Below, piece after piece: positions 33,969-45,620 of a stretch of 64,000 nucleotides of DNA. This DNA is from Haplodiscus bocki (Eukaryota), in NCBI GenBank assembly GCA_965655095.1, contig OZ296651.1, forward strand, positions 32,984,001 to 33,048,000, read 5' to 3'. The position numbers and the translations under genes were made by a program. Numbering within the stretch: position 1 is the first letter of the stretch; each line of letters starts with the position of its first letter. The notes below the pieces were generated by a model. That model was not told where the DNA came from. It ran no database searches and saw only the letters and a program-made list of their open reading frames with translations.

Positions 33969-34490
33969 TATAGCGTCCCTCAGCGCGGGGAGCTATTCGT
34001 TTTTGGTTATTTTGGCACAAACTTGAATTTTGCGGCTATTTTTCTAAGGTTGAAAAAATGTTTTTCTTGAAAGCAAAAATGAATTTAGTTAGTGAAGAAG
34101 AAGACTAACATTGTAGCAACCTTTACGGTGGTGATGTTTCTGCACAAATGAAAATGATGATAAATTCCCCCAGCAGTTTTCGAATAAGAACCAAGAAGAG
34201 ATCACATGATAGTAACGTGACAGAGTTTTGACGAATTATTGGTAGCGATAAGTTTAAGTATATATAATGATGGTTGGTACGATTTAAAAGGAAATTAATA
34301 CAAAAAGAAAAAAAACGTACGATTAAATTCGAAAAAGTTAAATAATAAAGGAAATTCAACGGAGAAGTTGAAGTGCAATTTGATTGCAAGCGAGCGCTAT
34401 AATGTAAGGTGACAAGACAGATGAACGACATTAAAATGCTTAGTCATGGGGGATTAGCAATGCACTGTTGAAATGAAAAAGAAATGAATA
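33969..34490 (-). repeat. 3' LTR of copy 2
   Basis: Direct-repeat homology to 45099-45620 (roughly 70-75% by eye). Confidence 0.82.
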
Positions 34491-34609
34491 TGGCCTGGAT
34501 AAAAATGACTGAGGAAAAAAATATGAATTTAATAAATAAAATGCTCCAACTGTTTCGTGTGTGAAGTTACACCCAACTTGTAAAACTGCGTCCTCGCATG
34601 ACATTCGGG

Positions 34610-35575
34610 TACAGAGATTATCACAAGACTCGTAAAAGGGGCGCAGAGTACACATACGGCAGACGTGAGAGCTGTCACAGCGGAGTACTCCAGAAGCACT
34701 TGAACAATCAGAAAATTGACATGAGCGTTGGCCAGAAAGAATGTCGTAGATTTCGTTGAGTCGTTGAGAGATACAGGTGGAGATGTGAGGGTGTTGGTTG
34801 TGATGTCAGAAGCGCATTAGATGGTAGTAATTCTTTTTGATATCAGTCAAGTATCAAGACGAGCTGCGACCAAGGATTTTCAAGAAAAACGTATCACTGT
34901 AAACACGGGTTATAAACTCATGATTCGGGCTGCAGAAACGATACATCAAATGGTGAAGCAAAGGTAAGACACTACGGTCTGCCTTCAAAGTGTTAACTTC
35001 ATCGCTGAAATCCTCGACAGTAATTTTGAGATCTTTGACATTAGGGGCCAGAATGGTATTTTCGTGTGTCTTTGTTTCCAGTTGTTGTTGTGTCTGTTCT
35101 GGGATTTCGCGTTGCTTCTGAAATTGAATTTCCAAGCAAGCTAAACGTTGTTTTTCAGTGCCACAGGCAACTCGAAGCGCTTCCAGTTCGTTGACTTCTT
35201 TTAGGAGCGCAGCAAACTCGATGTCGGTGGCGGATTCAGTAAAACAAGCTATTGGTTGAATAGGGATGTGTTACGTGAATATGGAACTATCAGCAATGTC
35301 CGGCAAAATTGGGAGGCACTGGAGAAGGAGACATTGGAAGCTCAACTTGCATTGGGTCAGTGTTATGGCTGAGGACGCCTGAGGAAGAAACAAGACTGGA
35401 GCAATTCCAGCAAAGAAACGGTTCTTTTTACTCCCAAAGGCGGGGTAAACCAGAAGGCTGTCTGAAATGGCCTTGCAGTGGAGGATACGGTATGGGATGG
35501 GTTCTAAAACGAAAGAAAGGGTTCCTGGTTGGGCAGTATCGGCTGACGAACAATCAGGCAAAACGGAGGATGACC
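34610..35575 (-). pseudogene. Accessory ORF4 with coiled coil and J-domain (J-domain ~34705-34890)
   Basis: DIEFAALLKEVNELEAL...LEIQFQKQREI, then FFLKILGRSSS*YLTDIKKNYYHLMRF*HHNQHP...SQRLNEIYDILS; aligns with 1306-2286. Confidence 0.72.
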
Positions 35576-35904
35576 TGGACCAAAAAATTTCTAAAAACCA
35601 CCTAAGGGACAAAGTAAGAAAAATATAAAAGGAGAGGGCGACAGAACTTGTGTAAGGCACGCAAGTACAGCAGAACTGATAAACGCCTAATCTCGTGAAG
35701 AAAACCGGAAACTGCAAGCTTTTTGCAAGATGGGTGCCTCGTGGGAGGATCAAGGAACGCGCAGCGGAGTTAATCAACCTAACTCCTGGTAAGACCAGGG
35801 CAGATGAAAAAAACCGCGTGGAAGGCCACCGTGAAAGGCTCAAAAGTCTCTTCAGCAAAGCTGAAGGGGTACGTGAGGGTGTAAAATAAGTTACGCTCAC
35901 CGTT

Positions 35905-44030: not shown

Positions 44031-45077
44031 TGGGTATTAGAAATGAGTAGAAAACGAGCAAGATTTGAGAGGAATTACTGTAAAGCCGATCATCAGAGAG
44101 TTATTTTTTGCAATTAGAGGTACAAAGCGAAGGTCAAAAAGAGAAAGAGAAAACAGGTGACCCAAATCCACAAAAGTGCGAGAAGGAAACGGTTAATGGA
44201 TTGGAATGTGAGGTGAACGGATTCGTAGTTGTTTTCTCACACTGAAAAAACAGGTGGATGCTTACAAAACGAAACGGTACCAGGAGGCGACTCGGGTTCC
44301 GTAGGAGGCGTCGAAAGGAAGTGCGGAACGTCTAATGAGACGAGGCGGGCTTGAACGTCACGGAACATGAAGTCAAGGCGCCATGGATGGCCTCGCAACT
44401 GGGTTAGATTTGGGAGCGGTGCGGCCGAAAGAGATGGAAAAAAAATTGCTAGGCGTTAATTCAATTAAAAAAAACGGGTGATCCAGGCAGCGACTATCAA
44501 AAAGAAATGTTGATGATCTTTTACGGAAAGCGGGGTACCAGACTGCAAATAAGACAAAGTAAGTAAATCTGAGTAAATGAATTGACGCAGGGATCCGTTG
44601 ACCGGAACTGGACCGAAAATCGACCGGAAGTCGAGCGTGAACAAGGTGACAAAAGCACAGATTGGTGGATGGGACGGGACCGGAAGAGAGCGGAATATCT
44701 TGTTTAAAGAAAGAGAGCTTTTTATTGTAACGAGTGAAAACGAGTCGGAACGATGGTCGAGAAAGGAAATCAAACATTGCCGCTAATCTTAGGAAAACTC
44801 TCAGAGTAAACGCTGGAAGTGTTCCTAACCTCAATGAAGTTGTTCAGGCACTGTACAGATACTGCCTAAATCATATTTTTGAAATAAATCTGCTCAATTG
44901 GCGGTACTCTGCTTAAAAAAGGAGGACTTAACCAATTCTTGCTTATTCAATTCAGTGTGCTAGGAATCGGGGACATCTCATTTTTCACCTCAAAAATTCG
45001 GAACAAACGAAAAAAGTTTCGGCTTGAGGTTGCAAATGCAACAAAAATGGTAAAAAAACTGGATGAAGCAGGTTCGC

Positions 45078-45093
45078 AGGCACACTCTCACCA
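45078..45093 (-). promoter_or_regulatory. Primer-binding site (TGGTGAGAGTGTGCCT)
   Basis: TGG-initiated sequence 5 nt inside the 5' LTR end; cognate tRNA not identified. Confidence 0.6.
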
Positions 45094-45098
45094 ATTTC

Positions 45099-45620
45099 TA
45101 TAGCGTCCTTCAGCGTTTGGAGCTATTCTTTTTTGTTTTTTTTTCTGGTTAAGACCTGAGTTTCGCGGTAATTTTCTATGGTTCAAATGGTGTTTTTCAT
45201 GAGAGCAAAATTGAAATTCTTTGGTGCAAAAAAGACTGACATCAGAGCAAGCTCCGCAGTGTGGATACTTCTAAACAAATGATGATGACGATAAATTCCC
45301 TAGCACTCTTCGGATGACAACGAAAGAGAGAACACATGAAAGTCACGTGACACAGTTTTGAGGAATTATTGGTGGCGATAAGTTTATGTAATGACGGTTG
45401 ATACGACACGAAAGGAAGTTTTTCTATAAGCAAAAAAAGCATACGGTTAAAAAGGCAAGAGTTATTCAATAAAAAAACTCACTCAAGAAGTTCAAGTGCA
45501 ATGTGATTGCCAGCGAGCGATAAGATGTAAGCTGAAGGGACAGATGAATAACATTAAAAGGCTTAATCATGGGGAGGGGATTATCGCTGCACTGTTGAAA
45601 TGAATAAGAAAATGAACATG
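45099..45620 (-). repeat. 5' LTR of copy 2 (outer end possibly truncated)
   Basis: Homologous to 33969-34490 and 2465-2989. Confidence 0.82.

Follow-up and report, generated by a model that had tools for sequence, protein, structure and literature searches.

Can a single unit bounded by long terminal repeats (LTRs) combine a retroelement gag and pol with a Macro domain, an envelope gene of fusion type and a J-domain gene, and what would such a combination do? This question was raised by a 64,000-nucleotide stretch of the Haplodiscus bocki genome (assembly GCA_965655095.1, contig OZ296651.1, positions 32,984,001 to 33,048,000; hereafter the window, G000:C4 of the 1.5 Gb assembly), for which an earlier note had described a unit of this kind. 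We found the LTR-bounded unit with all named parts where it had been placed, at 33969-45620 on the minus strand. This copy is dead. The Ty3/gypsy family to which it belongs was mobile recently, and its architecture is almost certainly gag - pol (protease, reverse transcriptase, RNase H, Macro, integrase; PR-RT-RH-Macro-IN) - env - ORF4, the last being a fourth open reading frame (ORF).

A decayed copy of a recently mobile family

Applied directly to the window, Pfam recognized only RNase H and a zinc knuckle, and the Macro domain, Env and the J-domain were identified through sister copies. Aligned with a sister whose frames are open, the window copy was collinear over its whole length (71-79% DNA identity) apart from about 800 bp lost with the integrase core (pol residues ~1147-1425), and the unit is thus not a chimera. 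Gag, pol and env are frameshifted, stops occur in all four ORFs and the longest surviving frame spans 311 codons; with the integrase core deleted as well, the infectious potential suggested earlier does not apply to this copy. The two LTRs are 75% alike (110 of 513 aligned columns differ; Kimura two-parameter distance 0.25), and because the initial ~79 nt of the 5′ LTR are beyond recognition, the target-site duplication could not be read. The family's features in the window are as follows.

45099-45620, minus strand: 5′ LTR, 75% identical to the 3′ LTR by local alignment
45082-45093, minus strand: primer binding site, decayed, of tRNA-Leu type (host tRNA-Leu 3′ end; 18-nt perfect match in related families)
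42789-43755, minus strand: gag, broken, 66-73% identical to the sister gag across three frames, 6 stops, zf-CCHC
42379-42693, minus strand: pol aspartic protease, broken, from the alignment to the sister copy and the sister's Pfam matches
41139-41786, minus strand: pol reverse transcriptase, frameshifted, by tblastn from the natural sister copy
40590-41018, minus strand: pol RNase H, Pfam RT_RNaseH_2 with E 8e-18 on the window itself and tblastn from the sister
39729-40136, minus strand: pol Macro domain of TARG1/OARD1 type, with stops, between RNase H and integrase, 64% identical to the sister Macro
39231-39473, minus strand: integrase remnants on either side of the ~800 bp core deletion, joined near 39396, by sister alignment
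35927-38224, minus strand: env, broken, 46-57% identical to the sister Env, 11 stops
35575-35595, minus strand: predicted splice acceptor immediately ahead of ORF4, with G as the next base; same-phase acceptor in 8/10 related loci
34608-35570, minus strand: ORF4, broken, 62% identical to the sister ORF4, 3 stops
34104-34111, minus strand: predicted start-supplying splice donor AT/GTTAGT in the 3′ LTR, which would act from the 5′ LTR of the transcript; 10/10 LTRs tested
33969-34571, minus strand: 3′ LTR with TGTAAC...GCTATA ends, preceded by a short purine tract
1-2989, plus strand: 3′-terminal part of another decayed member of the family, with the 3′ part of env (2-836), an ORF4 remnant (1306-2241) and the 3′ LTR

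The double-knuckle Gag, the Macro domain in Pol and the J-domain gene behind env, all claimed before, were borne out. Two CX2CX4HX4C knuckles lie at 42792-42920, and ORF4, recognized through the DnaJ match of its sister, comprises a beta-domain, a Pro-rich linker, a coiled coil, a J-domain (34683-34898) that has lost its HPD motif, and a Cys cluster. The env remnant contains a fusion peptide, heptads, a Cys-rich domain and a transmembrane segment at about 36110-36285; the 18-mer previously read as a decayed furin site occurs once, at 37718-37735, and aligns with the R-x-x-R of 26/26 family Envs. The relative at 1-2989, described as sharing env, ORF4 and LTR, turned out to be the 3′-terminal part of another full-length element, likewise decayed, which extends upstream of the window as gag-pol-env and has kept its Macro domain and integrase core.

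When the same genome was searched with Pol, 78 scored candidates yielded 89 matches, several lying in 1749-codon frames. Of 28 copies, fetched in halves, 8 have all four genes (gag, pol, env and ORF4) open. The natural sister copy encodes a Gag with Retrotrans_gag (E 2.6e-10) and CCHC matches, a Pol in which Pfam placed protease, reverse transcriptase, RNase H, a spacer, Macro and integrase in this order, an Env of 778 residues and an ORF4 product of 325. Five family-A copies were 99.4-99.8% alike. Copies more than 98% identical with open gag, pol and env, a trait of errantiviruses in the broad sense, were thus present among the sisters, and the window copy lacks this trait. A script resolved the LTRs of 20 out of 21 copy pairs, with a 4-bp target-site duplication in 18/20 and LTRs differing by 0-1 base in 11/20. 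LTR ends were TG or TA ... TA, not TG...CA. In families A-C, 9-10 bases of the primer site matched the host tRNA-Leu 3′ end; of 7 further loci, 6 could be resolved, and there the match covered 18 bases. About 90 tRNA-Leu-like genes form a large tandem cluster at G000:C11:13125622-13384153, the likely primer source. A TTTAAAC slip site before the gag stop, at the gag-pol overlap, was present in 5/5 copies checked and in 2/4 further copies whose stretch starts near it. The gene order was the same in dozens of loci and several families. In this genome, P0527 found no counterpart at E<=1e-90.

Some copies departed from the regular pattern. One young copy (L011:513-1232 / L012:4597-5320) is flanked by a 724 bp duplication of flanking DNA in place of the 4-bp target duplication. 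In the L027/L028 and L071 regions, the LTR match continues for more than 1.5 kb into leader or flank, suggesting tandem copies with a common LTR. Unrelated, distant LTR-element remnants (L008:2399-3601 and L005:3416-4495; 22% to Pol) adjoin family copies.

Macro-bearing Pols form one clade

All top database matches of Pol were gypsy-type, and a Macro domain was present in 17 of the best 120. In a tree of reverse transcriptase and RNase H from 59 sequences, all of them database hits, 19 Macro-bearing sequences formed one long-branch clade with support 1.0 apart from 40 others; four Macro matches were too short for inclusion. The Ty3/gypsy order PR-RT-RH-IN was found in the sister by Pfam, with remnants in the same order in the window, and LTRs, a tRNA primer site, a purine tract and a short target duplication were likewise present. 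Retroviridae and lokiretroviruses possess a tether plus a second RNase H, according to the available text of PMC12440569. Membership in these groups was rejected: there is a single, gypsy-type RNase H, and Macro sits where the second one would. The bridge between RNase H and integrase in the sister Pol holds a spacer and the Macro domain; in insect errantiviruses, the genus Errantivirus proper, it contains a pseudo-RNase H. The clade is complex-retrovirus-like in layout and not part of Retroviridae.

The Macro domain in Pol resembles TARG1

The sister Macro matched TARG1/OARD1 (PDB 4j5r) with E 1.8e-23 and the Pfam Macro profile with E 0.07, a weak score explained by its TARG1/OARD1 type. A lysine aligned with TARG1 K84 and a downstream aspartate were kept in 17/17 database Pols, which suggests catalysis rather than binding alone. 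The residue numbering presumes a TARG1 length of 152 residues, with D125 as the aspartate partner. In all members checked, Macro directly precedes integrase. Since synonymous sites were saturated for most pairs, we report the ratio of the proportions of nonsynonymous and synonymous differences (pN/pS) instead of the ratio of rates (dN/dS); for Macro, with saturated synonymous sites, pN/pS was 0.44. K84 is described as catalytic in TARG1 (available text of PMC8501950), an enzyme that acts on proteins and on the ends of DNA and RNA, from which it strips ADP-ribose (available text of PMC11088682). The Pol Macro is thus likely to be an ADP-ribose-removing enzyme.

Env as a likely fusion protein

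Across 26 family Envs of about 42-60% identity, both arginines of the R-x-x-R motif (R163 and R166) were invariant. These relatives share a signal-like N-terminus, an Ala/Gly-rich peptide after the furin motif, heptads, a Cys-rich domain and a hydrophobic transmembrane segment; the furin arginines and cysteines are invariant across families, the frames stay open, and pN/pS was 0.32. The sister Env matched Baculo_F with E 2.8e-5 (best member 5.4e-7) and a PDB entry named 'fusion protein' (9w4c) with E 2.2e-5, the Env profile being weaker at E 0.023; one of the 26 Envs matched paramyxovirus F0 (E 0.009). An AlphaFold model of Env (pLDDT 51, pTM 0.28) was too poor for a fold test: Foldseek gave no PDB match at E<=0.001 with this poor model, and its matches in BFVD, with root-mean-square deviations (rmsd) of 40-70, were meaningless and not used. 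Among 30 candidate stretches in IMG/VR, no Env relative was found (0/30). The Env is likely to be a membrane-fusion coat protein. Of the earlier F-type call, the Env-like third ORF stood, while the F-type assignment relies on sub-threshold scores plus architecture; the evidence for homology to F proteins is weak but consistent.

ORF4 encodes a J-protein in an exchangeable slot

The sister ORF4 matched DnaJ in Pfam with E 4.6e-14. In a structure model, residues 19-56 formed a beta-domain; behind it came a disordered linker rich in Pro, a helix of 85 residues and the J-domain, whose fold was matched with Z 9.4 and an rmsd of 1.6 over 72 aligned residues. This structural match covers just the coiled coil and J-domain, the N-terminal beta-domain being SH3/KOW-like by eye only; ESM Atlas scores for ORF4 did not exceed 0.81. 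Comparison of 17 ORF4 sequences (18-55% identity) revealed that the H and D of the HPD motif are invariant, that the P is kept in 16/17 and that a C-terminal cluster of Cys residues has been conserved. Subfamilies A and B gave a pN/pS of 0.39, with saturated synonymous sites. The gene is intronless and multi-copy (130 matches among 123 scored candidates), clade-specific outside the J-domain, and its product has neither signal peptide nor transmembrane segment.

At 7/7 loci chosen for distant ORF4s, RT-RH-Macro-IN and env lay upstream, and the J-protein is retained in most families of the clade. Of four metagenome contigs from outside this genome, two have ORF4 behind env, and the remaining two break off before this point. 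Near-identical pol and env sequences were found paired with either ORF4-A and LTR-A or ORF4-B and LTR-B, which are 55% identical. Two young copies, L003/L004 and L019/L020, have lost an identical stretch, comprising the pol tail and most of env, but differ in their ORF4/LTR types, which represents module exchange between subfamilies.

Family D, whose env is 44% identical, is present in at least 60 copies (60/60 scored matches 92-100% identical to the query) and has the Macro domain. One of its copies (L081:2530-4653, G000:C2) carries four small ORFs behind env, each after a phase-2 acceptor: two are RING-like (E 3e-4 and 0.03), one is of no recognized type, and one resembles ORF4 minus coiled coil and J-domain. 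From these sequences, one family appears to have swapped the J gene for RING-like ORFs, so that the slot behind env is exchangeable.

Env and ORF4 are predicted to be expressed by splicing

Most ORF4s lack an ATG where homology starts. A T-rich YAG in codon phase 2 precedes ORF4 in 8/10 loci, the window copy included, and the next base is G in 7/8 of these. In 10/10 LTRs tested, a splice donor was preceded by AT (by ATG plus two bases in family D). This donor was first noticed in families B and D, then in A, C, the window 3′ LTR and L075; predicted for six further loci, it was found in four of them. By chance, the motif arose in 46-73 of 2000 shuffles per LTR. Four sets of contigs that behave as DNA gave no intron-like joint among the alignments listed, which speaks neither for nor against expression. 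The LTR donor together with same-phase acceptors before ORF4 implies a dedicated spliced mRNA, and an env start codon completed by splicing (AU/G) is known from the Drosophila springer subclade (available text of 10.1101/2023.08.03.551782). We consider it highly probable that an LTR donor with a split start codon is joined to the acceptors of ORF4 and env. The resemblance to complex retroviruses proposed by the earlier note thus extends further than it had stated, to predicted dedicated splice sites and an exchangeable accessory slot.

Explanations for the gene set

How might these parts work together? Full-length RNA would give Gag and, by an inferred -1 frameshift, Gag-Pol. The LTR donor, bearing the first two bases of the start codon, would very probably be spliced to alternative acceptors, yielding separate Env and ORF4 mRNAs. 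The TARG1-type Macro would probably reside in the particle with reverse transcriptase and integrase, stripping ADP-ribose from element RNA, cDNA ends or proteins and so countering host PARP marking. We give about even chances to ORF4 being an adaptor that forms oligomers and recruits Hsp70, through its J-domain, to a host target such as a silencing or defence complex; it is placed in the cytosol or nucleus because it lacks a signal peptide and transmembrane segment, and a host target is favoured over particle assembly because the abundant family D keeps Env but has replaced ORF4 by RING-like ORFs. By analogy with Drosophila gypsy, Env may pass particles from somatic cells to the germ line, a step whose odds we also put as balanced. 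As a whole, this explanation appears somewhat probable, and the host-interaction role that had been ascribed to Macro and ORF4 is putative. A bolder statement is tentative: an infectious Ty3/gypsy clade may have become complex independently, with one donor serving Env and an exchangeable cassette of host-manipulating genes (Hsp70 adaptor, RING ligases) and a Pol-borne TARG1 erasing ADP-ribose on element nucleic acid. If true, this would amount to genetic evidence for invertebrate hosts using ADP-ribosylation against retrotransposons.

Several observations weigh against this account. Family D spreads without a J gene, none being intact in 3/3 copies, and its RING-like scores lie under the Pfam cut-offs. 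The reference Env scored 23.4 bits against Baculo_F, below the cut-off of 24.1; only 3/26 Envs matched this profile, and 4/26 matched the torovirus spike, via the coiled coil. Two young copies share a common deletion of most of env and have near-identical LTRs and target duplications. Env is thus dispensable in cis for spreading, since these copies have transposed; the J-protein likewise is not required in cis, and accessory roles fit both. Concerning splicing, the donor could not be resolved in L074, was ambiguous in L071, and was absent from the window 5′ LTR and the LTR at 1-2989, both decayed. Several donor-positive LTRs are kin and cannot count as independent cases, only 3/6 families have a phase-2 env acceptor with G as the next base, and in the outside contig L098 the acceptor nearest ORF4 does not fit phase 2.

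The same genes and splicing could also serve the element itself. ORF4 would then supply Hsp70 for the folding, assembly or uncoating of Gag/Pol particles, and Macro would be an ADP-ribose- or RNA-binding module that steers integration to PARP-marked breaks in the manner of a chromodomain. The constant position of Macro next to integrase, the retention of the J-protein in most families and a long coiled coil suited to a scaffold are in line with this proposal. We nevertheless regard it as rather unlikely, as the catalytic lysine and aspartate kept in 17/17 Pols suggest more than binding, and a family D thriving without a J gene would be unexpected if ORF4 were a core assembly factor.

Less probable still is a purely intracellular retrotransposon, in which Env no longer infects, or at most fuses adjacent cells, and both Macro and ORF4 are captured, lineage-specific cargo, useful and not directed against defence. 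The transposition of env-deleted copies and the lack of a free-virus Env relative in the 30 IMG/VR stretches would fit, as would the extra ORF3s common in LTR elements of bdelloids (available text of PMC5408684); set against them are Env frames that stay open across families, with invariant furin arginines and cysteines and a pN/pS of 0.32. The chance that unrelated insertions formed a chimera, or that LTRs trapped a host DnaJ gene, is negligible. The heavy decay of the window copy and the other repeats flanking it might have pointed that way, but both readings are refuted by young copies collinear end to end, by a gene order recurring across loci and families, and by an ORF4 that is intronless, multi-copy and clade-specific outside its J-domain.

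Errantiviruses are regarded as simple three-gene elements; if the favoured explanation, in which Macro and ORF4 act on the host, is true, accessory-gene complexity arose outside Retroviridae as well. PARP marking and Hsp70-dependent remodelling would be named as fronts of transposon-host conflict in an invertebrate, where Piwi-interacting RNA (piRNA) is the usual suspect.

Other features of the window and genome

The window also contains a ~15.6 kb palindrome at 8609-24202, with inverted arms 81-94% alike that consist partly of 28-31 bp tandem repeats; it includes a 200-N gap at 14986-15185 and represents a foldback element or an assembly artefact. At 46609-60306, terminal inverted repeats of ~540 bp (73%) surround decayed frames in which Pfam found nothing significant. 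By eye, these frames seem to include a polymerase motif of the B family, an integrase and a stretch like a packaging ATPase, and the whole is probably an old Polinton/Maverick. Elsewhere in the genome, mitochondrial COX1 is read by translation table 5, so the host is an invertebrate; by established code usage, cnidarians, flatworms proper, echinoderms, tunicates and vertebrates are ruled out, and an acoel was our tentative guess. A further match to COX1, in L064 (G000:C1991), is degraded and probably represents a nuclear copy.

Comparison with known systems

J-domains are known from viruses, as in the polyomavirus T antigen and the Jiv insertions of pestiviruses, and complex retroviruses express accessory genes 3′ of env from spliced mRNAs of their own. 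At the generic level of the J-domain, ORF4 resembles T antigen and Jiv as a virus-borne module that would recruit Hsp70; these belong to unrelated virus groups.

Similar in layout are the 'ancient errantiviruses' of non-insect animals, Ty3/gypsy elements with an F-type env of which 1512 were described (Chary and Hayashi, available text of PMC13524379). Like ours, they have genes in the order gag-pol-env, a tRNA primer site and an F-like Env in which a furin site and a fusion peptide occur, and intact elements are present in multiple copies. An F-type env on Ty3/gypsy elements outside insects is therefore the known part of the lineage that the earlier note had proposed as new. In the bridge between RNase H and integrase these elements have mini or pseudo-RNase H domains, where ours have Macro. 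The available main text mentions no macro, DnaJ, J-domain or accessory ORF; in the listed rows of the supplements 'macro' occurs only in species names and DnaJ does not occur; and Xenacoelomorpha are not among the listed taxa (PMC13524379). The springer-subclade errantiviruses, as far as described in the available texts of 10.1101/2023.08.03.551782 and PMC4276936, offer a parallel in expression, with a spliced Env mRNA, a start codon completed from an AU dinucleotide, a frameshifted pol and a baculovirus-F-like Env. They have three ORFs only, whereas here the same donor apparently serves an additional gene, or several of them in family D, and Macro is part of Pol.

The bdelloid elements Juno, Vesta and TelKA are likewise invertebrate Ty3/gypsy elements with captured ORFs, one lineage with a paramyxovirus-like env and an extra pol domain (dUTPase). 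Their cargo consists of GDSL esterase, DEDDy exonuclease and dUTPase, in the ORF3 slot, and the available text of PMC5408684 names no macro or DnaJ. Macro-domain ORFs have been reported in epsilon-like endogenous retroviruses of fish (Basta et al. 2009, as cited in the available text of PMC4977317); there the domain is an additional ORF in Retroviridae, whereas here it lies in frame within Pol and is fixed throughout a Ty3/gypsy clade. In the literature searched, to which Repbase, Dfam, GyDB and subscription papers did not belong, we found no Ty3/gypsy element with a Macro domain in Pol or a DnaJ ORF. What appears new against that literature is the combination of Macro and J cargo, together with a family that has RING-like ORFs in place of the J gene and a predicted start-supplying LTR donor with its same-phase ORF4 acceptors.

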